Shown: positions 8,421-64,000, counted from the stretch's first letter. The stretch is DNA of 64,000 nt from Amphiscolops sp. MND2022 (GCA_964187785.1 OZ076409.1:22756001-22820000), one strand, 5' to 3'. A program made the numbers and translations. Notes: generated by a model not told the origin, from the sequence alone.

Positions 8421-11400
8421 CTGATGAACAAAAAAATATTAGATAAAATTCGATTGTATCGCACAATCTGTTTTAATTTGATAATGGTAACTTGATGTCC
8501 GAGGTAGTACAAGTTGGCACCTTGAATGATCCTTGCAAGGAATTTACTTTTTAATAATCCAAAGGGAACAAATTTCTGGGAAATGGGTTTGCAAATTAAT
8601 ACTCCATCGACTATTAATTTCCAATCCCATTTTCGAGATAATATCAAATCGATTTGCATCAAAAGGTTAATTGAGCTTAAGCTTCATGAAGTTTTATAGC
8701 TCCAGAAAATTTCATGGGTTTGAGTTAACTTTTTGGACGACCTAATTTCGACATCATCGCACCTAGAACTTGGAAAATAGGCAGTATTTGGGGAGCCTAT
8801 ATGTATGCTGATTTTGTCCTTCGTGGTTTAAAAAATTCTACAGTCTAGCAATTTTTCAAAAGTAGGAGTGCACAGTTTAAATATGGAACTTCAGCTAGTT
8901 AGGAAGTTAAATTGTTACCTCTCTGGCTTCGGGACTGAAACTTCCTGTTCCACTTCGGTGTTCATGTTTGGCCCGGTCTGATTGGTCGGGTGACAACTCG
9001 ATCTCGTCTCCCGGTCGAAGTTCGTCTTCCACGCAGACCTTCACTTTCCGCTCCGTCACCTCCTGTTCCTGGGTACTGCCGGCATCTTTGCCAGACTTCT
9101 TGGAGCCTTTCGATGAAAACTTGATTGGGTTGGTTTCTCCTCGTTCGCCATCCGGTTGGTCTGGAACACAGGGAACGGGATGCAAAAGAAGATTGGGTAA
9201 AAAGTTGCAAAAATCTGAGGCTCACGTTAAAAAAAATTAAATAAGCCAACCAAGGATGTTTGATTAAAATCAATTGATTAAGATCATGATTAAAATCATT
9301 AAAATCAGTGGAATATTTTCATATTGTTGAATGTTGAATTGCTCCATTGGAAAGAATGTTCTCTTCGTTTGGATGGATACATAATGATCAGGGTAATCGA
9401 TTAGGTACCGAGAAGACAACGGAACTGTTATTTTGTTTCAAAGTTTTGAATTTGTAACATCTTCAAGATACAAATTTCAAGACATGAAATTATGTTTTTG
9501 ATCTAATGTTGTTTTTCAGTTGTTAGAGATAAATTTTGGAAAAAAATTATGATTTTTAAAATCAAGATCAGATTTATTTGATTTTTTTAAAAATCGGATG
9601 TTAATCCATCTCTGAAGCCAACACGTCCTGGGATGTTCCAGTAATTGCAACAAAATTGCTCCCAAGCGTGTTCAATGTAACCCAACTTAAATTTACTGTG
9701 TGAAAATGAATCTACATGATTAAGTAGAACGAAAACTCAACCACTTTCAGCGTATACTAATATTTAAATAGACTATGGGCTCTTTTTTTACTCAAACGTT
9801 CAAAAAACTAAATATTTACTTAATGGTTATACTAAGAATACTTTTAATTATTTCCAAATCTCTCAACTTACACTATTTTATTGACTTCACAAATTCATAG
9901 TAATACAAATTCACAGCTCTAATTTGTCTAATTTTTTTCCACATGAGCTATGTATCTGCTGTAAAATTAAGATTTTGCCGGATCATTTTTGTTTGTCAAC
10001 TGGATTTAGAAATGGAAAAGAAAAGAGAGTAATATTCTAAGCCTTTTTGTAAATTTTACCTGAAGTATATTTTTCACAATATATTCAGTATAAATTCACG
10101 GCTTGTAAATACAACAAGCTGAATGTACCTACTGACTTAATTTCCAAGAGTTTCTATGCATTACAAGTGAGTTCCATTTACGTTAATGGATCATAGTCTA
10201 TGCATGGAATTAAATTGCATCAAAAATGAACAAAGTGAACTAAAATAATTCTTTTGCCATGAATAAATTACAAGTTGAAGAAAAAATTTCATCTCATTAA
10301 TGGCTAAATGTATCGTTTTTCTCACTAATGACTAATGGAAAAGATACTCATAGAATAGTTTCAAAAATCGAATCATTGGGACCATTTTTAATGCGAAAAT
10401 GGGACATATTCAGCACAAACAAAACGTCAAATTTAAGAGCAAATCGATCCAAGAAGTTGAAATCTTTTCGGTAACTTTGAAATTTATTCCAATGAAAATT
10501 GCACAGATCGTGCATGAGAATATCGCAATAATTAACTAACTTGAGTATACGTCCTTTTTATGAATCCTTTAATCAATCGAAGCTATTAATAGCTTCGATT
10601 GATTAAAGGATTCATAAAAAGGACGTATACTCAAGTTAGTTAATTATTGCGATATTCTCATGCGCGATCTGTGCAATTCCATGCTGGAAAGTGCCATGAA
10701 CATGCATGAAAATGAATGTGGTTTTCATCCGGGTGAGGCATATAGCGACAACAAACCTGGGTTAGCTTGTGAATGGGGGGCGGGGCCTTCACCGTGTTTG
10801 GAGTTGCCGGGCAAAGAGGGATTGCGCAACTTCTCGGCCGCCTTGATGCTCTTCTTGAGGTTCTTGGCAGTGAGAAAGGAGAGAATTGTGATGGTAAGAA
10901 TGATGAGGATGTACGCCGTACATGTACTCACTGCATTGCATATCAAATCAAATAGCAGGCATGAACTTTCTATCTATACCAAGTGTTTCATCGGAAACTG
11001 AGTATGGCCCGAAAATAGTATTTCGAGCAATTAACGATTTTGAAAATTGAAATGGAATTTGACAATACGCTGTTTTGACTGGATTGAGATCTTTAAAGGA
11101 AGATCTTTATTATGGGTTGGTTATGGTTTCAAGTTAATAGAATCCAATACTAAAAAAAAAGAAAGAAAGAGACCATGTCTTATCAACCCCTCACGCAACC
11201 GTGGGGAGAAATAAAAAACAAGTTTCAAATACCTTCATGCCGACTTTGTTTGCGATCTAATTTTGATCCAATAAAGTAATTGATATCGACATAATCCTAT
11301 CTTTTACATCATTTCACAGTTAAAAGTTGCAATTTTTATTTTGTTGCGGAGAAAATTTGCGTTGGAAAAGGCCTTTTTAAACGATTTTAGTTTGTTCCAA

Positions 11401-14400: not shown

Positions 14401-17400
14401 GCCTTAGATATGACGCCGATTCGGGCCGTTCCCGGCTTGTTAGTATTAGTATTCTACCATTTGAGCTAATTAGCTTTGTTTAAGAATTGGTAATGAAGTA
14501 TGAATAAATATTCGACTTTTGTCTGATTTTCTCATTGGGTTATTGTGATAGAGCGATTGAAATGATGTAACATGTTTGTGAACAAGTACTGGTACCAATT
14601 GGCTAAACTCTGAGATTGCCATGCTTCATTGCGTGAAGCCTTGTTAAAAGAAACAGTTTTACTTATTCTAAATTCATCATCATCAATTTACAATTATTCC
14701 CTCAATTTCCAAATTTGACCTCTTTCAGCTATCGCAGAGCTTATTACTCTGTTAAATTGTGAATGCATCATGAACATCATGGAGTCCATTTCTTGAAAAA
14801 GCCTCCAGTTAATTTCATTTAAAAACGTCTCCATCGCCTCGGGGAACCTTTCCTGTCTAGGAATTGTATTTTCATGTCCAAAATATCTGAATTCAATCTC
14901 TTGAGAAAAACGTCCTGTAAGGTGAGAATAGAACTCAGTGTCATAATGATTTGCTGATCCTATAATTGTATTTGCTAATTCCGTTTCAATAAGGTTGATA
15001 TTTTCACCCGCTATCATTATGTCTAAATTATCCATATCAGACATCACGTCCTTTTTTCGAGACTTCTTTGCTTTTGCTTTCGGTCTCCTTGTTGAAGGCA
15101 TAAGAAATTGTTACAACGGAAGAATTGAAGTGTTTCTGCCTTGGAAATCAAAAGTGGTGTTACAGGTCATTTGTATGATATGATAGAGTTTCAGAATTCA
15201 TCAGCACTCGGGAACTAATTGCCCCGGGTATAAATACCTAAACTCATCATGCGTATAGATAGCTCCGTCTATTTTTAGAAGTAGTGACATCATGTCGCTA
15301 AGAAAAAATTCAAAACAATTGTGTCCCGTAGTTACTACAAAGCGCGGGAAATATATCAGAAAAGTCCTTGAGTGACATATACCTTTACATATAACTCAAC
15401 TAACGAAACATTACATGCAATTTCATACACCATGGCATTAGGCCACAAGGGCAAAAACATACATAACGCATTGAATTGGATTTTGAATTCAGGGTTAGTT
15501 CATCATTTTCGAAGCGCCTGGGGGTTTATTTCCAAAGTGTCCGATCAATTTGAGAGCACATAAGCTACTAATCAACATAATTACAGCACAGTCATTCAAT
15601 CACAAGCAGGACCTGCTCTCCTTTATTTAGCGTCTTTCTAGTATAAATGAAGACCGATAACGGCGCAAAGGCTAATCCGGCCGTGCTAGCGCGTTCAGAA
15701 TAGTACAAGCAATACTAAAATACTACACTGTGATTGGCTGAAAATGAAATTGGACGGCTTGTCCAAGGCGACAGGCAAGAAAACACTTGAACTTATTTCC
15801 TTTGCCTGTACGCTTTGGTGTCCAATTTCTCTAACGTGTCCAATTTCTTTAACGTTATATATACAAACGCAACATTTACTAATAAGAAACTACACGTTTG
15901 ATACTAAAACAAAAACAAATAGTTTTGTTCAGCATAGAAAAGTCTTTTATTTTTAAGGAATGGTATTTGACAGGGCCCGCTGGTAGTTATGACAAATGGA
16001 GTAGATATTCTCATCACAGGCGGCCGCCTGGGTTACTTACCATGATCATGGATAATTGCGCGGAATGGTCAATACATGAATCAAGGATGAACCATGGATG
16101 GAAAGCCATGGCCAATAAGCCAGTGACGTTCGATCGTTCTAAGCATTAGTGAGTAAGCTCGATATAGATCTAGTTTGAATTTTATGAAAAATTCTAAGCA
16201 ACGTGCTTCTAAAATTTTACTAAAACGCATTTGTTTGGAGAGAATTTGCCATTACAGAGATTTATAATTGAAAACTGCCAATGAGTTTTTCTACTTTTAC
16301 GACATTCTCAAGCGTTGCGTTTAAATTGATTAGGCTCAAAAAATGAAGAACCATAAGAGCACTGAGTTGCACGTTTCAAAAACTAAACCAAATGGATATT
16401 CAATTTTGCAATCAACATACTGCAAACAAGCATGTCGGAGCCACGAGAATGCGTTTTTTCGTTGATTCAAAAGCACGCTGAGGAAAGACACATTGGAAAG
16501 GCATAAATTGGGAAGGCTCGAGCGTATCAGAACGTATACCAATAACAACGTTCAAATCTTGCACAAAAGTTTGAAAATCACTTGACCTTTTGCTGATTTC
16601 CCACTTTTTGTTTTGGGCTCTAATAAACATATGCTAAGTAACAATTTGTTTTGTTGCTGAAGTCTGTGGACTATCATGAACATAAACGCATTCCAAAATC
16701 GTTCAAAAACTGCATGAAGTTGAAAAATGTGACATTTTTTGGTTCATTTTATCACCATTTTGGAAAATATAGGGTATTTCATTATAAAAAAGTATGGTAA
16801 GAAGTAATTGTTTTTCGATTCTCTGGATCCCCAAATTAACATTTGGAAATTTTGATTCGAATTTTTCATTCCCAGTAAATGTCAAGAAGACGTACAAAAG
16901 TTGAACAAAATTGACAAAAGTTGAAAACTTTTGCATCTATTTTTCTTGGTCATTTTAGGGCTTTTTTGAGATAATAAAATGTTTCTTTTTTCTGTTAAAA
17001 TGAATGCTACGTAGACAACGGTTTCTTTTACGAACTTTCTGGATGGATATTCACACTCTTATACCCTGGATTCTCAGTTTGAAATAAGAACGAATAGCAA
17101 TAAACAACTGTATTCTAACAAGACCATATGGAGAAAGAGCACCCCGGTAAGCTGAAGCTCGATACGGGCAGCGTACTGGGATAAGTGCTTTGAGCAGCCC
17201 TTAGTTGATTACTCTGTATGAACACTCTGTATAATTTGGCTCACAATAACATTCGAAAAGTTTCCAAAAGCTGCATCAAAATGGTCAAAACTTGGAAACT
17301 CATTACATTTTGAAGCACTTTTTGAAAGCATATTTCCTTGAATGTGTTCTGTGGAGTTGAATTTCTGTGGAACAACCTATATCATTTGGGAACGAAATTG

Positions 17401-21600: not shown

Positions 21601-24600
21601 TTCTCTCTTCATATGCGACTGCAAAGCGAAGGGCATCTTGTGGGTCCTCTTTCGGTTCAGTGCATAATCTTTCCTGCACGGTTTTGTTGTTCATATTCTG
21701 TATGAACGTATTCATTACTACGTTCTACGTCTGTTCGCAAAACTAGCATTTGGAACCAATCCCGTTAAAGTATGCCGAAATTGCCTGTGCGTCTCCTTTT
21801 CTTTTTGTTTTCGTGAAAAGAACTTGAATCTTTCCAGTGCTCTTTTTTCCTCAGTTTGCTGAATGCTTCATCACAACTTGTCCGATGTTCGCGTAATGTC
21901 ACGGCCGCCACTCTCATAAGTGAAAACTTGTTCGTAACACTCTTCGTGAAAGCTGTTCTTAACGATAGAAGAAGGTTTCGAACCACTTTTCTGTCTGCAG
22001 CTTGTTCGTTGAGATTGTTTATTAGGGCCAGATTTCTCGATGCTTGTTCCGTGGCTGTTCTCAACAACTCATTCAGTGATGAGTATTTTGCACTTACTGC
22101 AACTGTGAAGAGGTTCCACCACTTCTGTCAATCTATTTTAGGTGCTGTGTCCGCCGAAACTCTGTATGCTGGCAATCCCGACACCGCTGACGCTCTTCCG
22201 AACTTTGCAACTTCTCCACTGCTTGCTGAATCTCGCAGCGCCATGTTGTAGGTGAAGGCTTCGCGTAACTTTCAATGAAAACAAATTATCGATTGATGCT
22301 ACTGAATTTCAGTGTAAGACCATATGGTAATTGTTTTTTTCTTTTGCTTCCTTTTCTACTGTTGTGTTAGTAACAACCTGCCATTGTGACACAACTTAGT
22401 GAGGTTATTATGTAAGGTGACCGCTTGCGCTGTCACAATATATCTAGTTTTGTTTGCATGAATCAAAATTATGTCGAAAGCGGAGCAAAAGCAATTTCAA
22501 GAGAAATCAAGAATATTTTACTTAGAAGCAAACCAGATCTTTGAATGCCATTGTCGTAAGCACGAGAGTTTGTGGATGTAGTTGGACCGTCTTTCTGACA
22601 GTCCATAAATGGCTTACTTCTCGAGTTATCTCTGGAATCTGAGTTTCGCAGAACTTCGGAATATCCTTCCGGTCTCTCGGCCGGAACGTTCCATCTTTCT
22701 CTGGTCAAATGTCCCGATCCGGCCACAATGGCATTTTGAATCTGGGGTAAAACTTGATTGCTAATTGCATCATTTATGGCTCTCTGTATCTGAACACTGA
22801 CACTATTCATCATCTCGTCCATCTCTCTAGATATTCGGGAATTCAATTCACTCGACAGTCTATTTATCTCAGCACTAGAATTACCTCCAGCAGAGTTTTG
22901 GCCGTAATCGGCATTTGGACTAAGTCCGTCATTTCTTGAATTTAAGTACCTGTTTTCATCATTATTTTCAAATTGATCACCAAAAGTACTTTCAGGTCTT
23001 CTGGTTTGATTACTACTAAGGCTTTCATCTCTCTCATTTCTACTGAAATGGTTTTCTCCGAGCATCATATCTACATTTTCAATGTCCGAAATTATCTCAA
23101 CTCCTCTAGATTTTCTGGTTTTCTTCTGCTTTCTTGTAGGCATTAGAAAGAAAGTCCGAGGTAAAACAGTGAATTAGGTTTTATTCGGAAAATAGGATTT
23201 TGTACGTTGTATCGTAAACAGGTATATCAAACTAAACTTGGAGAAGCAAAATACAATTGTGTCCCTCTCGGAAAAATACCAATATATATACCCCTGAGAG
23301 GGTGACACTCACATTCCTTGCATGACAATCTATTTACAAATTCCATAAAGGGCACATGACCATGGCGGGTGACCACTAACATTCATTCATTTTTAGCGGC
23401 GTCAACTGCATCAAAGCACTTAGGAATTTGTCCCGTTAGGGCCAAAGGGAATTCATACCTAATTCATTCGCAGCAAAATCATTTAAAGTTTACATAAAAT
23501 ATGGAATGCACTCAAATGCATTTTCTAACTGCAAATACTATCATCAAAGGGGAGCGGAGGAATTTAGCCTTATTATATTAGGCAAACAACACTTTGACCA
23601 AACATCAAAACTAATACTTTCAAATTGTTTACAGTGAGAGGAATGTAAACTATTTAGCGGCACGTGCCTACACACGTGCGTAGAATCAACAAAACAAAGA
23701 CACAGTTTCATGCAATAGAAATGAACATAATATAGCAATATGGCCTAATACGGCCATTGGACTTGGGAGCTGGCCAATAGTGAAGGCCGGAATAGGACAG
23801 GTGACGGGTATTCGGATTGCTACTACTGGTCGTTATTATTGCACTAATTGGATTTAAAAAGCTCATTAACATCTTCAAGTATATAAATATAATCTTACAT
23901 GACTGTAAAACAAACTCATTCATGCTTAAAAGCATCTCTAATAATAATAAGCAAAATGGCCTAAACCGGCCATTTGCCTTTTGTCCTGCATTACCAATCT
24001 AATATAACGTCAAGTGGCCATATACGGCCAATCAATTAAAAATGTGTACAGCGCTTTACACAATCTGGCCTGAATAGGCTAATTGCCTCGTATTAAGTAA
24101 ACATTATTAAAATACTGGTCAAACGGCCTTAACCGTCTGAAAGAGCTAAGTCTGTGGTGTAGTTAGTTAATACTGCACTAGAGGGGTTATTCAGCCTAAG
24201 AGTACAAGCACATGAATCCTGGTTAATAATTAGCATCACAATTGCGCTTTTTGTGAAATGGCCGGAACCGGCCGTCTGACTGGATATTTATTAAAAGTAG
24301 CGAAGCTATGTCCACAGGCCTTATTCGGCCATTAATGAATGGAAGTATTAACTGCGTAGCAAATGGAGTAATTTGATTGGACAAGGCCGCGTGCTCAAGT
24401 GACGTATCTGGTACGGGATTTTATCAATAGCAACTATAATTAAAACAATTACCAACACTTCTTCTAACACTTTTAATCATGGCATCTGACGTATTAAGAC
24501 AACTTCAAGTACTTTCCAAGAAAATACACAGCACTACTGATTAAATAGCACAGATTACTTGATAAAAGCTAAATAGGCCGGAACCGGCCATTGGACCAGC

Positions 24601-27600
24601 GTTCACGAGCATAGTAGTTAGATTAAGGCAAGCGGCCATAACCGGCCAAATAATGTATTGCTGAGAGATAATGCTAATACTAGCTATACTGCACTGTGAT
24701 TGGTTAATTTGCAGGAGGCAGCCTGCGACACTGCGGGTGGAATAAATAAAAACGACCCTGCATTCAGTCTTTTCAAATAAGCTTCCTTCATCATTGCTGT
24801 GACCTAGGCCGGCTCACCTCTTGGAGTGACCGGGCACGAAACTGTCTTTGATTTCGTTCAAGTATTGTACACCCTTGGTACCATCGATTAGGAAGTTGGG
24901 TCCGGATGTGTCAGGTCCAAAGGCCCAGATCTTTCGCAGGTCATCGGGTCCCCATTGTGCTTCTACCAATTCAGCTTCATTATCGTCTCCTTTCACGAAA
25001 GTCTCGTATATAAATCGAGTTCTGGCCTTGGCTTCGTCACTGGCCTTAACGTCACCAAGGTCAATCTTTTCAGCGAGTCCTTCCAGGAAAGGATCTGCGG
25101 TAACGAATAATCGGTTGTGCTTGTTGGGAGACTTGCTGAGAGCAGGCTCTTTTCCCGATGAGATGACAGTTTCTCTGAAGGACACGACGGGGTCTTTCTT
25201 GATGATGGGAATACAAGCGTGGTCCTCCTCCAAATCTTTCAAACAGATCTCCAAGTGCAATTCTCCGGCACCTGCCACCTAATTTGCCAGAACGCGAAGT
25301 TGCTTCCACCTCTGGAGCCAGCTGACATGCCCTCTTTTCCCAAGTCGGCCTTGATGAGTTTGCCATCGTATGTATAGACAGCCCACTTATTGGATACCTT
25401 CAGAGTTGGCGAGTGAGTTCCCAGAAGAAGTCTCTCGCCACAAGGAGACCATTCGAAGCATGTGATATCTTGGAAATCGACGATCTTCGCAATCAAACTG
25501 AACGTGGGTCGATACCAGATTTCTACGTTACTTCTCACTCCTCCGTGGCCGTAGAGCGCCAGCAAGTGGCCCTGAGGCGAAAAGCTACACGCGGTTCGCA
25601 GCCCAGTCCCGAAGTCATACACAGAAGAACATTTCGAGTTGAACAAGGACGCTTTTGAAGGCATGTGTCCATAAGTAACACAGAATTCGCTGACGTTTGG
25701 ATCCCAGCAAATATTGTAGATTGGACCCTTCTTGTTGAGTTCCACAATACTCGAGGAGCCCTCTGTCGAAATGTAAAAGAGCATGGTCTCTCCATAGTAG
25801 GCCTGTCCCGATTGATCCACCTCAGTCATGGACTTGATTATCAACCCATTTCCTGGATTGTTCCAATGCAGGGTCGCTTTATCAGCTTTGAAGAAGCTCT
25901 TCGAAGAAAGTGCCGAGTACTGGTCCAGGTCGGGAAATCTCAGAATCTTCACAACTGAAGGCGTTCCCTTTTTAGATCCGGCCACGTAAATGGCAACATG
26001 ATAGGGCTCTTTAGGTAACATTTCAACAACAGTCAGCCCTGGGATATTCAACTTGTACTTCGGGGTGCTGAAGTCACCATCGACATAGAAAACAGCTGTT
26101 TCCTTCAGAAGTTTGCAACAAACTTTCTCATCGTCAGAAAACTGAGGTCGCCAGTTCTCGAAAGATCCTTGTGTGAAGGTTGCAACAACATCTTGTCCCA
26201 AGAAGGAGAAAATGCAAATATTGTTCTGACTTTTATTGGCATTGCTAAAAGGTTCGAATGTGGAGATGTATGTATTTTTCGGAGAAAATTCAATACTGAT
26301 CACTCGAGACTTTGGATGCTTGAAGACAACTTGCAAGTTTGATGCATTAAAAACCATGAGGTTTTCAGCATCGCACCATGCGAAAAAATTACCACAACTG
26401 CTCCAACTGAATACCTGGTTGACTGAACGCTGAGTGGCTTTCGCATCAATTTGACGAGGCGAATAAGCTGTAGGCCCACTGGTTGGATAGAGGAGAAAGC
26501 CTTCGTTGCCTCCGACACAGAGATGAGGCAACGATGCACCTTCACTATCACCACCTTGCTGGCTGGTCATTTTATTTCTTTGCTAACCTTCGACTAAATG
26601 ATTGCTCTCAGAGTTGCGTGCTCAGAATTTACCTCAGAAATATCAAAATTTGATTGAAAATCTGAAAATCGAGTACGTCAGAGCTGGGTTTCTTTAAAAT
26701 CAAGTATCAAATCAAAACAGCGAACACTAAAGTAAGTGGGAAGCACTATCAATGACAGTAGAAGCAAATTTTTGATTGACAAAGGTTTCATCACAGGCGA
26801 ACACAATTCTGTTTTCTGAATCCATTGACGTAGGGTACACGGACTTTTTCCACATGTTGCAATCTATTTAATAAGTTTATCACAACAATTACAATTAGGC
26901 TTTCGATAAAAGGGAAATTGGAAAGTAAAATGGCGAAAATAATAACTAAAATAATCCAGAATGCGGAAATTCTAACTAAATGGTAATAAGGGCAACGGAA
27001 CAAAACGGCAAAACGGAACAAGGTAAATGGCCATAATCGGCTTCTAACTAACTGATTTGTAAATAATGAGCAATCTTCTGTACATTTCGCTGGCAGACTC
27101 CATGCACAGTTTTAAATTCGTAAATAGCCATAAAATATTAACCCGGTAATCTCTTCAGCCACGAACTCCAACTTTTCAATTTTGATTATCATTATTCTAA
27201 TTCCTTTTTTATTTGGATTTTTGTTCATTTGAATTCATCTTTACGACGTCCATCTCTCTCCGACTTCAACTTTGTTGCTGACTACATTTTCCTCGGAGTA
27301 TTCCGGAGCATCTTCCTCTTTTCAGCCGAGCTCGGCCACTTTCCCCAACTTCACCAGCCGAATGAGGACGGTTACCCAGAAGGAGTTTCCATCACTGCAG
27401 GATGTCTTCAAACACAAGTTGATCTGGATTTTTATTTTGAACTAATTTAACTTGATCAGGGTTAAAATTTGTTCACAAAATGCTTCCTGCTTCCATCACT
27501 AAACACGTGATAACACGTTTCATTCAAATTTTTAGAACACTTTCGAAAGGTTTCTGACGCGGCAAAATGGATTTCTTTCAAGGAAGCTAACCGCCAAATT

Positions 27601-30600
27601 TCATCTCTTTCTGTTTATAGAATCAGAACAAAGAGACTACTCGAACACCAGATCCCAATTCACCCGTGGGTACAGGTTATGCTGTTGTGTTTTCACCGCC
27701 CCTGTTTCCTCCTCTTAGAGTAGAGAGGTCCCCAAGTAGTACTGACAGTGTTGATGTTACAGCTTACGCTGACGAAAAGGTCAGACTCCATGCAGAGGCT
27801 CAATTGCTAGAAGGGTCACAGGTCGCTGAATCATTCATGGCGACCAAGAGACAAAGGACGAAGAAGGAAGAAGGGTAGATGCAGTAGGAGGAGAAGTAGA
27901 AGGAGAGGTAGAAGCAGAGGGAGGAAGGACTTTAAAAATGAAAAGGAAAAGAAGAAAAGAGAGCAGTGTTCCTTCTTGGACGCCTATTAATCTTTTCCTA
28001 GTATCTGAAGTCTTCTGAGTAGTTTGAATTAGGATTAGGTCTCAAACTATATCTTCCACCTCTAGGACTCAGATTTTCATTCCCTTCATCATTTTGCGAT
28101 ATTTCGGGCACGATAATATCATCCCCCCTTTTTGGAGATTTTTGTGCATCGCTTTCATTAGCAGAATTTCGTTCTGAAACATTTGCATTGTTTTCTTGTC
28201 TTTCGGACAGATCCGGCAAAGATTTTTCTGGATTTTTGTGGTAAACGGCCGAATCCGGCCAATCAGAGTTTTCATTTCTAGTAGCTTCACTATCTTCATT
28301 TGCATTGCTGACGTCACTTTTCAGTCGTTTATCTCGACTGTGCTCTGTATCGTTGACGTCATTCGGACAATCAGTCGTGATTATGTAATCCGCTTCATTC
28401 TCGCTTGCGTTATCTGCGTTCGCTTTTGCCGTACTCGGTCTTTCTTCATTCGGCAAGCTAGCCGGAATAGGCTCGTTGCCTCGTGTAGCTAGCTGTTCAC
28501 CAAAGTTTGTTTCCCACGTAACTGTGTACAAATCGTCCTGCGGAATGACAATTCCTTCGTCCGGCAGTAATCGCTCTTCTCGGAAAATGTCCTCAAGCGG
28601 TTGATTGGGGACAAACTTTTTGAGGCGAACTCGATGCAAGATCTGAGTTTTAAGGTTACTGTTGGTTGACAGGGGTATACAGTCTGGTTCACCATTTTTG
28701 GTAATGAGTACATTCTGGAACTGTCTCTCGTCTAGTAGCGATTGTGGAATTGATTCTGCACAGTTTTCGATATTCTCGGTTCCCAAGGGGTTTGGAAACA
28801 CCGGATGGTTTAGCGCTCTGGTTTTCTTGTTATGGGTAATTGGAGGGTTCTCGTGGACTGTCTTGTTGCAATGTTCAATATCGTCTAGAACATATTGAAA
28901 TTGCAATAGATCCTGGTTGCAGATCTCAGTGTCCCAGTAGTGATCTCTTCCATAATCTGGGTCGATGTATGTAGGGTTGTAGTCGACTACTAAGGGAATG
29001 GGCCTGAATCGGGTAGTAAAGGTAGTTGTGTAATCAGGATCCCAAACAGGAATTGATTTCTGGAACAAATGGGTATTATTATAGGTAATAATGATAGCTT
29101 TTTCAATTTGCTGCTGCCAGACAACAGAAGGATAGCCCATCAATTGTTGTTGGTAATTATGAAAGTTTTTGGTTTGAGGGTCCGATTTGATGTATTGACG
29201 GACAGAGACTAGTTGGTTGTATTGGAGTGGTGGCGAAGCTAGTTTTTTGACTCATCTTTGCTTGATGAGGATTGGGAATTGGATGATGTTGGCTTGTGAT
29301 GGGGTTTTGAGGATTTAGGGTCAGGATCGCTGTCCGACGAGTCCTCTGGCCTGGTGCGTTTGGGCTTGAGATGCGCACCAGCACCTTGCCAGCATCTCTC
29401 CTCAGGGTGGTTTGTCTTGCCACATGTCCCACATTTAGGATAAACCTTTTTCTGTGTGGGCTTGCCTTGTTGGGCATCTTTCTCCTTCTTCTTTTTGCGC
29501 TTTTCACAGTCTTTGACGATGTGGCCCTTTTCTTTGCAATAGTTGCAGGTAATGTCACTCATTTGGACGTTTGATGGAAAAGTTTTTGTTTTTGTGGCTG
29601 AAGACGTCATTGATGCCATTGGTAGGTCATCAGATTCTTCAAGCGCGTTTAGCTCCAATTCTCTCTCAAGATGAGCGACAATTTCGTCATAGGAGCCGTT
29701 CTCTAATCTGGCCATATTTACTGATCTTTTTTGCTTGGGCGGCAGTTTCGCGTATAGGAGACTGTCAATAATCTTTTGGGCATGGTCTCCGAATGCTTTT
29801 TCTGCGCCTTGATTCAGCTCTTCAAAAAAATGTGGTAGTTTTGTCGTATTTGGATCAAATACCAGACGGTGCCATTTATGTTTGGCAGTTGCTTGAGATT
29901 CGGGTTTGACGTATTTCCGTCTGAAGATGACTAATACGTCCTCGAGAGTTTGTCTGTTAGCTGTGCTAATGTTTCGGAATGTTTGCAGAGCGTTTTTTCT
30001 CAAAAGCGAATGAAAACGATTAATTTTCATCTGCTCGGACATCAACTTGATCATCGTGTGGAATAGATATACGAACAGCCCGAACTTCTTGCTTTTGCCG
30101 TCAAAAGTCATAGTGTTTGAGTTGACTGGCCGGATAGTGGGTTGTTGGGCTGTTGGACGGTTCTGCATACTGGTCGAGACATCAGCTAGCCTGTTGATAG
30201 GGTCTTGTTCCGGGGCCGGAACGGTCCTTTCTTGTGCTGGGATCGTCGTGTCGAGCAGGGGATTGAGGTCATCATGAGATCGGTTGAGATGACTTCTTGA
30301 TGGCGTTCGTCCCGTGAGAAACTCAGGAATATCAGTTGGAGATTCGTTTTCTCCTGTCACCATGTCGTAAGCACGAGAGTTTGTGGATGTAGTTGGACCG
30401 TCTTTCTGACAGTCCATAAATGGCTTACTTCTCGAGTTATCTCTGGAATCTGAGTTTCGCAGAACTTCGGAATATCCTTCCGGTCTCTCGGCCGGAACGT
30501 TCCATCTTTCTCTGGTCAAATGTCCCGATCCGGCCACAATGGCATTTTGAATCTGGGGTAAAACTTGATTGCTAATTGCATCATTTATGGCTCTCTGTAT

Positions 30601-33600
30601 CTGAACACTGACACTATTCATCATCTCGTCCATCTCTCTAGATATTCGGGAATTCAATTCACTCGACAGTCTATTTATCTCAGCACTAGAATTACCTCCA
30701 GCAGAGTTTTGGCCGTAATCGGCATTTGGACTAAGTCCGTCATTTCTTGAATTTAAGTACCTGTTTTCATCATTATTTTCAAATTGATCACCAAAAGTAC
30801 TTTCAGGTCTTCTGGTTTGATTACTACTAAGGCTTTCATCTCTCTCATTTCTACTGAAATGGTTTTCTCCGAGCATCATATCTACATTTTCAATGTCCGA
30901 AATTATCTCAACTCCTCTAGATTTTCTGGTTTTCTTCTGCTTTCTTGTAGGCATTAGAAAGAAAGTCCGAGGTAAAACAGTGAATTAGGTTTTATTCGGA
31001 AAATAGGATTTTGTACGTTGTATCGTAAACAGGTATATCAAACTAAACTTGGAGAAGCAAAATACAATTGTGTCCCTCTCGGAAAAATACCAATATATAT
31101 ACCCCTGAGAGGGTGACACTCACATTCCTTGCATGACAATCTATTTACAAATTCCATAAAGGGCACATGACCATGGCGGGTGACCACTAACATTCATTCA
31201 TTTTTAGCGGCGTCAACTGCATCAAAGCACTTAGGAATTTGTCCCGTTAGGGCCAAAGGGAATTCATACCTAATTCATTCGCAGCAAAATCATTTAAAGT
31301 TTACATAAAATATGGAATGCACTCAAATGCATTTTCTAACTGCAAATACTATCATCAAAGGGGAGCGGAGGAATTTAGCCTTATTATATTAGGCAAACAA
31401 CACTTTGACCAAACATCAAAACTAATACTTTCAAATTGTTTACAGTGAGAGGAATGTAAACTATTTAGCGGCACGTGCCTACACACGTGCGTAGAATCAA
31501 CAAAACAAAGACACAGTTTCATGCAATAGAAATGAACATAATATAGCAATATGGCCTAATACGGCCATTGGACTTGGGAGCTGGCCAATAGTGAAGGCCG
31601 GAATAGGACAGGTGACGGGTATTCGGATTGCTACTACTGGTCGTTATTATTGCACTAATTGGATTTAAAAAGCTCATTAACATCTTCAAGTATATAAATA
31701 TAATCTTACATGACTGTAAAACAAACTCATTCATGCTTAAAAGCATCTCTAATAATAATAAGCAAAATGGCCTAAACCGGCCATTTGCCTTTTGTCCTGC
31801 ATTACCAATCTAATATAACGTCAAGTGGCCATATACGGCCAATCAATTAAAAATGTGTACAGCGCTTTACACAATCTGGCCTGAATAGGCTAATTGCCTC
31901 GTATTAAGTAAACATTATTAAAATACTGGTCAAACGGCCTTAACCGTCTGAAAGAGCTAAGTCTGTGGTGTAGTTAGTTAATACTGCACTAGAGGGGTTA
32001 TTCAGCCTAAGAGTACAAGCACATGAATCCTGGTTAATAATTAGCATCACAATTGCGCTTTTTGTGAAATGGCCGGAACCGGCCGTCTGACTGGATATTT
32101 ATTAAAAGTAGCGAAGCTATGTCCACAGGCCTTATTCGGCCATTAATGAATGGAAGTATTAACTGCGTAGCAAATGGAGTAATTTGATTGGACAAGGCCG
32201 CGTGCTCAAGTGACGTATCTGGTACGGGATTTTATCAATAGCAACTATAATTAAAACAATTACCAATACTTCTTCTAACACTTTTAATCATGGCATCTGA
32301 CGTATTAAGACAACTTCAAGTACTTTCCAAGAAAATACACAGCACTACTGATTAAATAGCACAGATTACTTGATAAAAGCTAAATAGGCCGGAACCGGCC
32401 ATTGGACCAGCGTTCACGAGCATAGTAGTTAGATTAAGGCAAGCGGCCATAACCGGCCAAATAATGTATTGCTGAGAGATAATGCTAATACTAGCTATAC
32501 TGCACTGTGATTGGTTAATTTGCAGGAGGCAGCCTGCGACAGCCATTATTATGTTGTAAGCCATTTCAGTGGACTACATTTAACCATGCAAATTAACCAT
32601 TTAACCATTCGGGAACTCATACCCCAAAAAGTCTCCGAAACCAGACCTAAAAGCCTTTTCTGCAATAAATTTATCATTCAAGTCACAATTGCAGCTCGAA
32701 GGTGCTAGAAATACTTTTTACGAATACTACATCAAAATTTGAAAACTGTATCGAGTACTTAAACTAGCTAAAACAAGCGTAATGTTTCTGTACACGTGTC
32801 AACGTGTTTACATTTGCGTGGGGTGTTTACGATACATTCTCGACACAAAACCTTGCATGAGATCCCACAAAATCATAACTCTACTCTGCAAAGCAAAAAA
32901 TTCAGGTTCTCAGCTAGCTTAAACATAAATTTAAACTCTCTTGACGTTAGTGTCGGAGGAATACTTAACAGCAAGCTGTCAAATGAAAATGGTCCATTTG
33001 TGTCAATCATAACTCAGTGATAAAGAAAACACAGACTGATACGCGCTTCTGTTACCTTATCTGACATGAGAATCGGCAACTGTCTATTCTGCATGTGAAG
33101 CATCTACTTAATTGCCATCCTTATTTGGATAAGTTGCACGGTTTCCGTGCGAAAAGAATTTAATTGCAACATTAACTTCTCCCCAAGAAGTGTAAATAGT
33201 GGAACATTTTCCTTTTGCCCACAGGCAAAAAATTATGAGCAGAAATGGCAAATATTGCATAAATCAGTAATTGATTATATGAATATATGTGTAGTCATCA
33301 AAAAGGAGTAAAATAGAATGTTTTGGGTAAAGAATCAATTTCATTATACACACCAAAAGTGGATAAACTTTAGGATAGTACCTATGAATCCACAATGGAG
33401 GTAGCAGAAGCAAACAATTACCCCAAATCCACGGGTGGACGCCGACTAAGCAGTTCTACTATTCTACACGGCGCCCTTTTCGGATACTATCTCTCCATAG
33501 CAAGCTATGTTACCATGTTTGGAGCAATTGGTCAAACAATGGCCGGCTTGAAGATGTGGTTTCAATGTGACTTGCACAAGGTCACAGAGGTCTGACTGCT

Positions 33601-36600: not shown

Positions 36601-39600
36601 GGAGTTGTGGTGATTAATCCCGAATCTTGACCCATAGCTTCGGTTCCTTCATCCCTTGTAGCGAATAAACGCTCAGCGCTTTTCATTACAGTCGCTTCAG
36701 AAAAAATGTTTCGAAAACTTTATTTAATGGAATAAGTAAGTTGATCAGGGTAAAGTAACATGCAAGTAACATGTAAGTAGCAGTCGGAAATATTTCTGTC
36801 TTCATAAACGTTTGAACACGTTTGCCATTTTTTTGCAATCACTGGGGAAGAACAAGATAGCATTTCGTTTAAGACTCTATCAAAGCAACTTCTTTTTTTG
36901 ATTTTCAATCAACGTAGTTCTGAAAATCTTCCTTTTCATTTCTTGGTTGTCGTACGTTTGACAATATCAGTCTTCATTATTTGCATATGGTAGCGAACTT
37001 TTGATTTTGCTAGCGATAAATGTATTTCAGCTGTCACTTCAATACGATCATTCATGGTTGTTCGCAAAGTTTCAGTTGTTTTTGTTCGTTCTAGGTGAAA
37101 ATGTATGATCAATACACGTTTTGGATGTTGGCGTTCTTATGGTTGGTAACAAGCTTTGTAAATGGTTCTTCAAATAGTAGTTTGATTTCGTTTCCGTCGG
37201 AATGGTCTGAGAAAGTTGGGCCCTCTAGGAATATTTGAATGTCAATTGAGCAGTACTTTAAGGCTGCCCTAAATATGCAGCATCACTAAACTTCGGTTTA
37301 AAACGATTTCGTAGTTTTGAATTTTGCTTGTAATTGTTTTCAGTTATCCATGTTGCACTTGGTAACATGGCTTCAGGTTTGTTTAGGAACGTTTGAAGTA
37401 GCCATATTATGCCTGGCTGATGAAATCCTGATTAGACTTCATCTCTAGCCCGCTATTCCAGATATTTTCAAAAACAATTCTTATAAGGTGATTTCGAGGA
37501 GTGAATATAAAAGTTTTTTTTTATTTCAGTGCATTTAGCCACATCATTAAAGCAGGCATTTTCCCTGTAGGAGTTCATTGTTGTAATCTCGGTCTATCAC
37601 GATAAAAAGGTTCTTTATCTAAGACGATAAATTCGTATCTTCTTTAGCAACTAATCTATAGTATCAATCTCATGTTCAATGGTCAATACTCTATTGTACA
37701 ACACTAAATGTAGTAAACTCAAATTGACAGTAATTAGAGTTTTATGTTTGACAACAATAATATGCTCTCTGTCTAGGTTCATAGTTTTGAAGGTCATGAT
37801 ATCCACATGATATCACATTCCCCCCTCTTCGGGGTTGTCCGATGGGGATTTGTTGTAGTGGCCGTATGGTACGGATTTCTTCATTGTTTTGCCGCATTGG
37901 ACGGTCGTTCTTCGTCTCATTTCTCTCCGCTGTTTCCGCTGTTGTTTCCTGTAATAAATTACCGTGGTTAGTTAATTTTTTCTTATTGTTACTAATGTGG
38001 TACGGTATCCCGCCTAATTTTTCGGTTTGTTTTGCAAAAGGTAGTCTATTGGATCTTCTGACCGGTTCTATCGGTTTTTCTGTTCTATTTTTTCTTTTAT
38101 AGCTACCTTGTTCCGGTGTCAGGTTAGTTTCCTTCGGGTGGAGCTGAAGTTCATCTTCGATGTTGACTTGTATCGGTTTTCCTTCCGCTTTATTGTAACA
38201 TTCGAAGTCGTCATCGTCAGATATGATGCTCAGGTTTAGGTTTTCTGTGTTTTTGTTTGGTGAAGTAAATTGTCCCTTGTTGTTCCTGGGTATTTCCTTT
38301 CTTTTCGACCAGTCCTCGCTTCTTTCGTAGTTTGCGGTGTTCTTCGGTGTTTCTTTCCTGCTGTAGATGCAGGGTGCTCCGCTGGTGGTTGTATTGTCCA
38401 GTGTTTTGGAGCAGGTGGGTTGGTCTGCGGTGTTTTGGCGGGTGTTGATCTTCTTTGCCGGTGTTGTTGTTTGCTGAAATGGTAGCGGGTTGGATATTAA
38501 TTTCCTGTGGATAACTTTATTTTTATCCGTTGTTACGGTGTGTCTTGTTCCAGATACAGCGGTTTGTACTTTATTTTTGAATTTACTTTCCATGGATCCT
38601 TTTTTGTAGTTTTTTTCGTAAAATTTGAAAGGATATTCAAATTTACTTACCGCACTGGTCGGTTTTTTTGTTTGGGAGAATGTCATCCCTCGCTTGTATC
38701 TTGGTTCGGCTATCTTTTTCTTTGACATTACCAGGTGATCCGTGATTTGTCCGGTTGAATTTCTGGTGATATACACCGAGAGATCTTTGGAATCCACTGA
38801 AATAGAATTTTTTAGGTTAGACAGTTTGGTTCTTGGTGTCCGTCCGAAATGTAATTCAAACGGAGTTTTCTTTATTTCTGAATGTATTGTAAATCTTAGG
38901 ACGTATAGTGCTCTATTTACGCTTTCACGAAGGTTTTGGTTGTCTTCTAGATTTGCCAGAGTTAGGTTCTTCAGCGATTGGATTGTACGCTCGACCAATC
39001 CGGTGCCAGTATGTAGGTTTGCCGTACCGTATATGCGGTTGATATTATGCGTCTTGCAATATTCTATGTATTCTTTGGAGATAAAGGCGCCGCCTTTGTC
39101 CGACTTTATTTGTTTCGGTACTCCGTATACATTTATGTATTCATTCAGAAATGAAATGACGGTTTCATGGTTCGTATTTTTGCATATTTTTGCTACGGGC
39201 CATCGGCTATTTTTATCCACCGCAATTAGTATAAACGGATTGCTTTGCAGTTTTTTATTGTTGAGATTTCCCGTAAAATCAATTTGTATTTCTTCACCAG
39301 GTGTTTTTGTCGGTTCGATTTTTGATTTTTCGGTTTGGGGTATTTGGAATTTTAGATTCTTACCAGCGTTGAGGCAGGCTGAGCAGGTTTTTGATTTCTT
39401 TTCAATATCTTCCCGCATGTTCGGCCACCAGAATATTGCTGCGTCGCTGTACATTTTGTTTATCCCGGGATGTCCAAAATGTAGTGCATTGAGTGCTGCG
39501 TAGCGTAGTGATTTTGGAATTACGATGCGGTCGTCGACCAATATAATGCCCCAACGGTATGTCAGTTTCTTGGCTACGGTTTTGTAGTTCTGCGGAATTT

Positions 39601-42600
39601 GATCCAATTTGTTGTCCTCGATGCAGCAGTTTAGTTCGATGAGATCAGGGTCAGCGGCCGTCTCCTTGATTATCGTTTCCAAGTCTAGCATGAAATCTAG
39701 TTCTGCCGATCTGACGTTATCTTCTTGTTGTCTGTTACGCTTCGGTTTTTCTTCAACTACGCGGTTGATTCTCACGTAGTGTACGGCAATTTCTTCGATT
39801 GGCCCGTCTCTGTATTCTTGGACTGGTATTGCTGGGTAAGTTCCGGGTTCGTGGGTGGCTACTGCTTCCTCCGAGTTATTTGAGACGGTGGATTCTGTGT
39901 CTCGGTTGGTTTCATTTCTCTCGGTTTGTTGTTGTTCGGTGTTTTGGGTCTGGGGAATGTCGTCCCCAAAGTTTTGAAAATATCCTCCGCCGATATGTTG
40001 TTCTCTGATCTTTTGTCTCAGTTGAATGTCAATTCGCTTTATTTCTCTTCTTTCATCTTCTTCCGGTCTTCTCGGTATGTAAATTTCTCGGCCCAAATTC
40101 TTGTTGAAATGTGGTCTCATTACACCCGGTCTCGCCAATTGTACTCTTCTTCTCACGAGTTCCGAAGTTTCGGGTGATTTATCTCTTGCATTGATAATGG
40201 CCATGATATCGTCATCTGCACCCCAATGGTGTCGTAATTGTCCGTCTGTGCGGAAGAAGCGTGTATTGTTTTCATTGTTATTCATTTTTATACAGTCAGT
40301 ATTGGATGAATGCTGTTGTATGCGGTAATTAGAATCAATATGGCTTTTGTTTGTTTGGTAGCGTCGCGTGTCAATTAGCGAGCGCGTATCACGCATGTTT
40401 GCTTTGGCTGCCGTGGTCGCGTCTTCTGATTGGTCGAAAATCCGTCCTATTCGGGCGTTTACCGTTGCTAGTTGCGCGATGGCGTTAATAACAAATTCTT
40501 CTTCGTAATTTTCTTCCGGTTCTGGATTTTCGGTGGGATTTCGGCTGATGAAATCCGTGAATTTGATTTCTTTGCCGGCAGTGTGTTTTAAGCAGATGTC
40601 GAAGTGGTTCAATCTGTCTAGCCATCGTGTTAGTCGCGCACTATATTGTTTATTTGTCTTGTTTCTCTTCAGGAGGGGTTCTAGTGCTTGATGGTCCGAG
40701 AATAATTGGACTTGTTTGCCATATAAATGGAATCTAAATCTTTCCAAGCCCCATACGACGGCTAATAGTTCTAATTCTCCGATAGAATATTTTTTTTCGG
40801 CGTCGTTTAGGTATCGGCTGGCAAATGCTATCGGTTTTAGTTCTCCGTTGCCTTGTTTTTGCCAGAGTGCTATTCCCAAACCAGTTTTGCATGCGTCGGT
40901 TGTGACGATGTTTTCTTTGTTGCCGTTGTAGTGTGCCAAACAGGGTAATGATGTTAGTTCTTGTTTTATTTTGTTGAAGTCCGAATTTCGATCGGTTGTC
41001 CATTCCCATTTCGTCCCTTTTTTGAGTAGTTGTCTCATGTTGTCTGTTTTCTCGGATAAATTCGGTATGAATTTCGCAAAGTACTGTATAGCTCCGAGGA
41101 AAGATTTTAGTGCTTTGGCGTTTGTTGGTGGTTCTAGTTTATTTATCGCATCTGTCTTTTCTTTGTTTGGCCTGATTCCGTCTTGTGATATCGTATGTCC
41201 GAGCCATATTGTTTCTTTTTGATAGAATTTTGACTTCTTTTTGCTTGCTTTGTAGCCTTCATTTTCCAGTTTTGTCAGTACCGAATATAGTTTTCGGGTA
41301 TGTTCTTCTTTGGTTCCACGTGTGACAATTATAATGTCATCTAGCCAAACTGGTGTTTGGTGACCCAGGGTTCTGTCTATTTTTTCTTGGAAAATCGTTG
41401 GTATGTCGGCGGGGCCGTAGAATCCTTTTAAGAATCGGTAATATCCATTTATTTTCTCTCCTGTCATTGCAAAGTTGCAGTGTTTGCTTGTTTCGGGGGC
41501 CAGTTTCATTTGTCCGTATGCGTAGTCGAGGTCTACTACGGATATCCAAATTGGGTCGCGGTCGTTTTTGGATAATTCGGCTGATATTTGATTTAATAGT
41601 TCTTCCATATTTGGCATGTGTGGCCTTTTCTTTACGCAGCTGTCATTGAGTTTTCGGGCGTCTAGCGCGATTTTTACCGTCTTGTCTTTCTTCACCGTAA
41701 TTACAACGGGTGATACAAAACAATCTTCTTCGATTGTTTCTAATCGTTCGAGATGTCCGGATTTTATTAATCGGTCCAGTTCGTTTTTTACGTCTTTTTG
41801 TAAATGGTACGGTATTGGTCTGGCTTTCTGCTGGATGGGGTAGCATCCTGGCTTTATTTGAATTTTCACTTCTATATTTTTAATTGTATGGTTTGTTTCG
41901 AATAGTTTGTTGAATTTCGCGTAGATGGTTTCTGATTGGTTGGTTGGTTCGTCCAATTGAATTTTGTTGATGGTGATTGGTAATTGTTTCAACCAGTTCA
42001 CGCCTAATAATGGAGTGATATCGTTTCTTTTTGTAATTAGGATTGGTAATTTTGTTGTCTTTCCGTTGTGTTCGATATCGGCCCATATTTTCCCGAGGAA
42101 TTGGATTTCGTTTTTGTTTACGTCTTGATATCTTTCTTTCAGGGGTTTTATATCTCTTTGGTTGTAGAGTTCTGGGTTGTTTGGCATTATTGTAACTGGA
42201 GAGCCGGTGTCAATTGTGAAATTTTGGTATTTGCCGTTAATTTTTAGTTTGATCCCGTAGTTATCGTTTTCATCCGGTAGTACTCTATTGATTTGCGTGA
42301 TTTGTTGTATTTCTTCTGGTTCACTTTCTTCTTCTTCGGTGTATGTTTCTTCCAGGTAGTTGATTTTTTGCTTTCTCGTGTTCTTATTGGTTTTGCTGCG
42401 GCAAACTCTTGCGAAGTGTCCCATTTTGTGGCAATTATTACATTCTGCCGTTTTTGCCGGGCATTTGTGTGATGGTGACCAGTTTTGCTGTCCGCAGAAA
42501 CCGCAGTTGTTGTTTTTTGCGGTTGTTTCGGTATTTTTCCGGTAGTTTCGTGGTTGTATCTTCTGTATGGGTTCTTCTTTAATTTCTTTTTCTTTCGCCA

Positions 42601-48600: not shown

Positions 48601-48690
48601 AAATTTTGGTGAAGATATTAGAATATCTCATATATGTGATATTCTAATATCTTCACCAAAATTTTAACTGAAGTATACTTCAGTTAAAAT
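48601..48690. repeat. Two abutting loop-less palindromes (48601-48664, 48661-48690)
   Basis: 64 bp with one mismatch and 30 bp perfect. Confidence 0.92.
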
Positions 48691-63826: not shown

Positions 63827-64000
63827 TATTTATAGTCCTTGGCTGCAACATTACGAGTTTGATTTTTTAAATTTAAAAACACACTTGTGATAAGGAAGTG
63901 ATTGTTTCAATCATGATTGAAACAATCACTTCCTTATCACAAGTGTGTTTTTAAATTTAAAAAATCAAACTCGTAATGTTGCAGCCAAGGACTATAAATA
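63827..64000. repeat. Perfect palindrome of at least 174 bp running off the window end
   Basis: Centre 63913/63914; no mismatch seen up to 64000. Confidence 0.95.

Follow-up and report, generated by a model that had tools for sequence, protein, structure and literature searches.

The closest described system is the LTR-mediated retroposition of Tan et al. (2016; PMC5131818), in which a partial, intronless copy of a host mRNA lies between two LTRs. According to the main text of that article, in which "trans-splic" occurs 0 times, such retrocopies can be chimeras of several genes and can transpose again as non-autonomous elements, the microsimilarity at their joins has a median of 6 bp, and both ends of the cargo are usually truncated at short chance matches; one family, BLASTOPIA, has a fixed switch-back site. 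Two other systems bring spliced leaders (SLs) into contact with reverse transcription. In dinoflagellates a DNA copy of the SL marks the reverse transcription of a trans-spliced mRNA, and this relic SL, as PMC12014239 presents it, is a passive tag on dispersed retrogenes whose responsible element is not identified there. In C. elegans the Gypsy/Ty3-type element Cer1 interacts with SL trans-splicing: SL1 is spliced to an acceptor of the element's own subgenomic RNA, and the account given in PMC3315495 describes neither an SL in the element DNA nor a host cargo.

The locus reported here, from the acoel Amphiscolops sp. MND2022, resembles the retrocopies of Tan et al. in its partial, intronless host mRNA between two LTRs, in the chimeras of several genes and the renewed transposition seen in its family, and in the microsimilarity at the joins, here of 6-10 bases, but differs from them in that the 5' join always falls at an SL held by the element itself, so that the cargos are 5'-complete from the trans-splice acceptor, while older cargos are kept as nested 3' remnants. 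The fixed site of BLASTOPIA is the nearest detail to this junction. Unlike the relic SLs of dinoflagellates, the acoel SL is inherited with the LTR element that contains it, and it serves more than one mRNA. In the openly accessible literature on SL-linked LTR capture and in the follow-ups of BLASTOPIA, no account of an SL that serves repeatedly for capture came to light. The kind of retrocopy is known, each feature of LTR-mediated retrocopies that we tested being present, while for the swapping of cargos at a resident SL we found no report.

The window, by which we mean the whole stretch of 64,000 nucleotides that was analysed, contains a copy of eIF2A inside an LTR element at 22552-32541; the parts of this element are on the minus strand. 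Its 5' LTR (30363-32541; 2,179 bp, TG...CA, with the start of gag inside) and its 3' LTR (22552-24730) differ by 1 mismatch over 2,179 bp, and the 5-bp target-site duplication GCCAT stands on both sides (32542-32546 and 22547-22551). The primer-binding site TGGTGACAGGAG (30351-30362) is complementary to a tRNA-like 3' end with 16 genomic occurrences. The primer may be tRNA-Leu; ARAGORN at default settings found no tRNA gene at 2 loci. The gag ORF (29239-30954, 571 aa, with a zinc knuckle) ends in the slippery heptamer A AAA AAC and the gag-frame stop TAG (29239-29248), and the -1 frame stays open over a pol remnant of 415 aa (27998-29245) from which the enzyme core is deleted and for which a Pfam search returned no match. 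This is a -1 frameshift layout, as the first-pass annotation had supposed. The RNA fold behind the slippery site is weak (-7.3 kcal/mol, computed without a shuffle control). A longer relative, whose LTR is 93% identical, has reverse transcriptase and then RNase H at the place of the -1 frame, and this undeleted type has 509 pattern matches in the genome. Since relatives with about 93% identical LTRs possess both enzymes, the family is pol-deleted and needs a helper; by its LTRs, primer-binding site and target-site duplication, the eIF2A-bearing element is a non-autonomous LTR retrotransposon. The internal region is 91-100% identical at the 40 places of the family that were scored. Its 3' internal end (24731-24827) is pyrimidine-rich, and before the 3' LTR no polypurine tract is present here or in 5 of 5 relatives, all of which are pyrimidine-rich there instead. 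The tract concerned (24731-24760) ends in CAG, resembling a splice acceptor, and is conserved in the same 5 of 5 relatives.

The captured ORF (25239-26570, minus strand, 443 aa) matches the Pfam eIF2A family with E 4.6e-54 and human eIF2A (8DYS) with E 7.8e-87. Searched against the genome, this copy matched itself and, on contig C4, a single spliced host gene, and nothing else, so that the eIF2A cargo is single, with the host gene but no sibling copy beside it; our genome searches score the best candidates only, and cargo copies devoid of an SL could escape them. Ten exons of the host gene are matched and its 9 GT-AG introns are absent from the copy, which is thus intronless. The two differ at 5 positions of 1,592 nt, all in the coding sequence, 2 of which change a residue. 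The 5' UTR of the copy (26571-26863, minus strand, 293 nt) starts exactly at a TTTCAG acceptor of the host gene. Within it are 3 upstream ATGs and a TTTTCAG whose last base, 26662, is 92 nt upstream of the AUG. An upstream ORF of 42 codons is also present, in frame with eIF2A; the long 5' UTR and its second possible acceptor suggest alternative trans-splicing of the host eIF2A gene.

At the other end, codons 1-433 of about 600 are kept (25272-26570, minus strand). The host protein goes on after FWQIRWQ with KRPVADF..., in the same exon, to its end at 600-601 aa, and 167-168 residues are missing from the copy. Splicing was considered as the source of this cut and rejected, as the break is in the middle of an exon, 79 nt before the host donor. 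The break coincides with an 8-nt microhomology GGTGGCAG common to host eIF2A and host eEF2 (25272-25279, minus strand), behind which an eEF2-derived tail and TGA follow (25239-25271, minus strand); the out-of-frame eEF2 origin of this tail had been recognized in the first-pass annotation, which however counted 9 residues where there are 10. The nearest named eIF2A is that of the acoel Convolutriloba. In the protein collection, the exact chimeric protein is found only on one 108,787-nt ENA contig; 8 other exact chimeric proteins were looked up and 7 were found, each on long ENA contigs only. Two Logan members of the eIF2A cluster were examined as possible further instances of this copy, but they are full-length and 91-94% identical, hence distinct from it.

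Directly upstream of the eIF2A 5' UTR lies a host spliced leader of 31 nt, enlarged by a 6-nt TAATTG duplication unique to this copy (26864-26900, minus strand). The element motif equals the published SL of Symsagittifera roscoffensis, a species in which, according to PMC9911081, 30.2% of genes are trans-spliced. Its 22-nt core has 1,948 occurrences in the genome. The SL RNA genes stand in tandem with 5S rRNA (E 8e-27) in a 904-bp unit at G000:C1:16.23-16.41 Mb, and GT follows the SL directly in 19 of the 19 array loci read. The SL RNA folds into hairpins, and AATTTTTG is presumably its Sm-like site. The TAATTG duplication is absent from the array copies read; it fits a mis-registered switch within the SL, and slippage would also give it. 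Since A precedes the SL in 86 of 95 dispersed full copies, the leader probably begins with A, and the join of the founder element to the SL then rests on a 2-nt AG match.

We sampled 115 dispersed SL loci, out of 736 SL matches without a following GTA. A shared upstream flank joined to different downstream sequences was found for this LTR family only, and no other family among the 115 had the cargo-swap pattern. The remaining loci show the reverse pattern; by inspection, most of them are the 5' termini of LINE-like elements, and many LINE-like families apparently undergo trans-splicing and are then copied along with the leader at the 5' terminus. Most dispersed copies (L220-L249, L264-L353) head repeats whose ORF1-like frames look, by eye, either Cys-rich and PHD-like or esterase-like. 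At 5 of the 115 loci, partial SL repeats stand immediately upstream. At L241 a partial SL precedes an ORF, which we take to resemble the start of a BEL/Pao gag.

What lies behind the SL was then compared between copies of the family. Among 34 copies read across the cargo site, 25 have a short element segment of 219-231 nt, 1 has a duplicated piece of element sequence and 8 have host mRNA. The SL is present in 8 of the 8 copies with host cargo, and none of the 26 copies without SL has any. A pattern search returned 10 copies with an SL junction and 35 with an empty junction. All ten SL carriers have two LTRs, a primer-binding site and a 5-bp target-site duplication of their own, their LTR pairs have 0-9 differences (39 in one), and the SL is inserted at one identical internal nucleotide in all of them. 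The leading cargos are eIF2A, a TRPM-like channel (3 copies), CSE1L (2), XRN2, an acyl-CoA synthetase (ACSL), WDR36 and an SLC28 transporter, the gene names being our reading of Pfam matches; these seven mRNAs are a small sample, and neither the three copies of TRPM nor the two of CSE1L can be counted as independent. Each of the 7 lead mRNAs starts, on the genomic DNA, at the first base after a T-rich AG of the host gene (TTTCAG in 6, TTTAAG in 1).

The cargos are flanked by both LTRs of one element, whose internal sequence they replace, and their ends have neither a poly(A) tail nor a LINE-type target-site duplication. The host genes of the XRN2, TRPM, ACSL, WDR36 and PNPT1 cargos have several exons; host CSE1L and SLC28 match as one block, which means that a loss of introns cannot be shown for those two. 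The XRN2 copy, L140, is a three-gene chimera of 599 aa (L140:1655-3451, minus strand), where XRN2 is in frame with a PNPT1 fragment (RNase PH match) followed by eEF2. In the TRPM-loaded copies L129 and L138 the cargos are 99.95% identical, the LTRs are identical within each copy and the target-site duplications differ; judged by these marks, the pair is a very recent re-transposition of a loaded element. One of the two has an internal deletion of 500 nt.

Two linked SNPs upstream of the SL distinguish the carriers. At 12 nt (26912, minus strand) C is found in 10 of 10 SL carriers and in none of 35 empty copies, all of which have A. At 34 nt (26934, minus strand) G is found in 10 of 10 carriers and in 1 of 22 empty copies. 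The searches for carriers and for empty junctions each allowed one mismatch, so that the other allele at -12 would have shown. On the evidence of these positions, a single event produced the SL junction, which now stands ahead of seven different mRNAs. This bears on the hypothesis of a non-homologous hot spot, in which the enzyme reaches the 5' end of a capped mRNA and jumps, each time independently, to the same element nucleotide (GAAAG), without any resident SL. Such independent jumps would hit the common haplotype, which is not what the carriers display, and only 2 nt are shared at the site. A fixed switch-back site serving five retrocopies is nevertheless on record for BLASTOPIA in Drosophila, in the main text of PMC5131818, and in the present family four carriers (TRPMc, ACSL, SLC28, WDR36) rejoin the element without an eEF2 remnant. 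The scatter of the carriers on the backbone tree would likewise suit a hot spot: on a tree of the whole internal region (3.5 kb) they do not form one clade, with 3 label changes against a mean of 8.8 after shuffling. We attribute this scatter to recombination between copies, which is to be expected if co-packaged RNAs recombine; beyond the last ~35 nt before the SL, which alone are diagnostic, the copies have a mosaic make-up.

The 3' side of the cargos tells against the hot spot as well. Behind eIF2A lies the remnant of an earlier eEF2 capture (24830-25279, minus strand), which matches residues 546-680 of vertebrate eEF2 and is 93-97% identical to the host eEF2 loci at C1:62.03 Mb, C1:62.16 Mb and C4:74.78 Mb. 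Its 3' junction with the element is common to 5 other copies; these six copies, with 4 different lead mRNAs, have an identical junction and share one substitution that is absent from the 3 host eEF2 loci. Two further substitutions absent from host eEF2 link the eIF2A and CSE1L copies. Such private substitutions point to descent through loaded copies, and with them we consider the hot spot improbable. The remnants are nested, with 450 nt left behind eIF2A, ~350 behind CSE1L, ~95 behind TRPM and ~95 behind XRN2-PNPT1, and this is what repeated overwriting from the 5' side would leave. PNPT1 in L140 and TRPM in L129 join eEF2 at the same TTTGGACC site; this means that one of these cargos probably replaced the other there. 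In 9 of the 9 joins tested on the 3' side, 6-10 exact bases are shared between both donors. At least 6 shared bases were found in 0.16% of random position pairs, but since the join count is the best run within a 50-nt window, the rate expected by chance for each join is larger, at a few percent. The join of eEF2 to the element has gapped similarity only.

We propose that the SL of the element is an inherited landing pad for template switching by reverse transcriptase, at which trans-spliced mRNAs have replaced each other serially; we give this reading, whose mechanism is deduced from genomic fossils, a probability of roughly 0.8. In LTR elements minus-strand synthesis proceeds from the 3' end of the element towards the primer-binding site. 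In the founder, reverse transcriptase, copying a trans-spliced mRNA, would have reached the 5' terminus of that mRNA and from there switched to the element at the AG match, thereby fixing the SL. Later on, the enzyme of a helper element, copying the element RNA from its 3' end, would use 6-10 shared bases to jump into a host mRNA packaged alongside, run to the SL of that mRNA and return to the SL-bearing element RNA through 31-32 nt of identity. Every new cargo would then be 5'-complete and 3'-truncated, and would overwrite the front of the old cargo while leaving its tail. In the copy described here, eIF2A would have overwritten the front of a resident ending in eEF2, by a jump that happened to fall at WQ codons.

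The start of all cargos at acceptors could also be obtained by splicing. An element RNA whose SL-GT serves as a donor would be trans-spliced onto acceptors of host pre-mRNAs, the resulting chimera would enter particles, and a single jump at a microhomology would complete it, as when retroviruses capture oncogenes. This would account for efficient packaging, and the SL is indeed followed by GT in 2 of the 7 cargos, WDR36 and SLC28, where the bases read GTC or GTT; donors of the GTT type are known from the introns of host eIF2A. However, the intron part of the SL RNA, which follows the SL in the arrays, is seen in 0 of 10 carriers, the 6-nt duplication inside the SL is no product of splicing, and ordinary SL trans-splicing already accounts for acceptor starts. 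Hence, we hold the splicing route to be unlikely, to about the same degree as the hot spot, and prefer template switching at a resident SL.

We then considered the protein that the copy would encode. AlphaFold2, run on an alignment of 30 rows, gave a model with pLDDT 83 and pTM 0.83, in which the last strand is at residues 427-432; a cut at residue 433 is therefore a cut at the end of the propeller. The TM scores of the model are 0.84 to 8DYS and 0.81-0.82 to the nine-bladed 3WJ9. The first-pass annotation had maintained that eIF2A is cut at the end of a foldable propeller, naming structure prediction as the check, and on both counts the model agrees with it: the predicted nine-bladed propeller is complete rather than partial. 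Compared with the WD-repeat domains of 3WJ9 and 8DYS, which it resembles in this way, the predicted product is a natural 3' truncation with a foreign tail of 10 residues.

The same annotation had seen in this product a potential decoy or dominant-negative form connected with the frameshifting of the element. More generally, a propeller-only eIF2A could be expressed and selected as a decoy that tunes translation or the -1 frameshift of the element. The frame is open and the predicted propeller complete; residues 1-424 of S. pombe eIF2A are, in the description of PMC4125824, a stable fragment that was crystallised; the propeller has been suggested, in PMC7139343, to bind initiator tRNA and the C-terminal part to bind eIF5B and mRNA; and the TTTTCAG upstream of the AUG, if used as an acceptor, could yield a translatable RNA. 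Against this, eIF2A occurs in a single copy, so recent (1 LTR mismatch, 5 changes) that selection would leave no visible trace, and its siblings bear unrelated mRNAs, several of which are cut inside a domain. The positions of these cuts in the Pfam profiles are 107 of 335 for WDR36, 103 of 443 for XRN2 and 284 of 384 for ACSL; two cuts other than that of eIF2A do fall near Pfam domain ends, at residue 533 in CSE1L (Cse1 ends at 530) and at 383 in SLC28 (the Gate match ends at 370), and these speak against our own reading. The heptamer is independent of the cargo, being kept in 31 of 32 copies, and neither reverse transcriptase nor RNase H is encoded in the -1 frame that it serves. Between the 5' LTR and the AUG of eIF2A there are 3,792 nt with 60 ATGs. 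As reported in bioRxiv 10.1101/2023.01.23.525275, residues 1-433 of human eIF2A gave no gain in -1 frameshifting in cells or in vitro, and the full-length protein had no effect on HIV-1; the frameshifting result, as it stands in that preprint, does not address a dominant-negative action. Purifying selection across copies, by which a selected accessory gene would be recognized, is not found for eIF2A, the copy being single.

The place of the cut itself need not reflect selection. The lead mRNAs have cargo sizes of 1,157-1,841 nt (8 joins), and within this range eIF2A mRNA and the resident sequence have 8-mers in common at 5 sites, among which the WQ site is counted by construction; 3 of the 5 leave the propeller whole. 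From this count, the coincidence of the cut with the end of the propeller is probably due to chance. The eIF2A fragment is likely a passive cargo, and a selected decoy seems to us very improbable, even more so than the two rival routes of capture.

If the landing-pad reading is true, it removes a limit from LTR-mediated capture, which normally depends on chance matches of ~6 bases at both ends: with a built-in SL, one end would be identical to thousands of mRNAs over 31-32 bases, and the start codon would always be kept. Once one copy held the SL, every trans-spliced gene (~30% in the lineage) would have become a homologous substrate. We think it somewhat probable that the SL was in this way turned into a reusable cloning adapter, and the element into a self-refreshing shuttle which loads 5'-complete mRNAs, stacks old cargos into fusions such as XRN2-PNPT1-eEF2 and transposes them again, and that retrogenes and shuffled exons would arise in this way in trans-splicing lineages generally. 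Higher rates of capture and a bias towards N-terminal fragments would then be predicted in trans-splicing animals and protists, and the SL relics on dinoflagellate retrogenes would have a testable source. The pattern of a shared upstream flank, an SL and different genes is easily searched for in nematodes, flatworms, tunicates, cnidarians and dinoflagellates. Captured fragments in an LTR element could also feed the silencing of their parent genes by small RNAs.

Finally we must note some other features of the window. A second LTR element at 37145-43951 has one gag-pol ORF of 1,825 aa (protease, reverse transcriptase, RNase H, integrase); its repeats match in two blocks of different order, and its ends look rearranged. 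An ORF at 14694-15101 is similar to the start of gag in the eIF2A-bearing family and possibly belongs to a diverged solo LTR. Perfect or near-perfect palindromes without spacer are found at 10497-10678, 44144-44219, 48601-48664 and 63827-64000.
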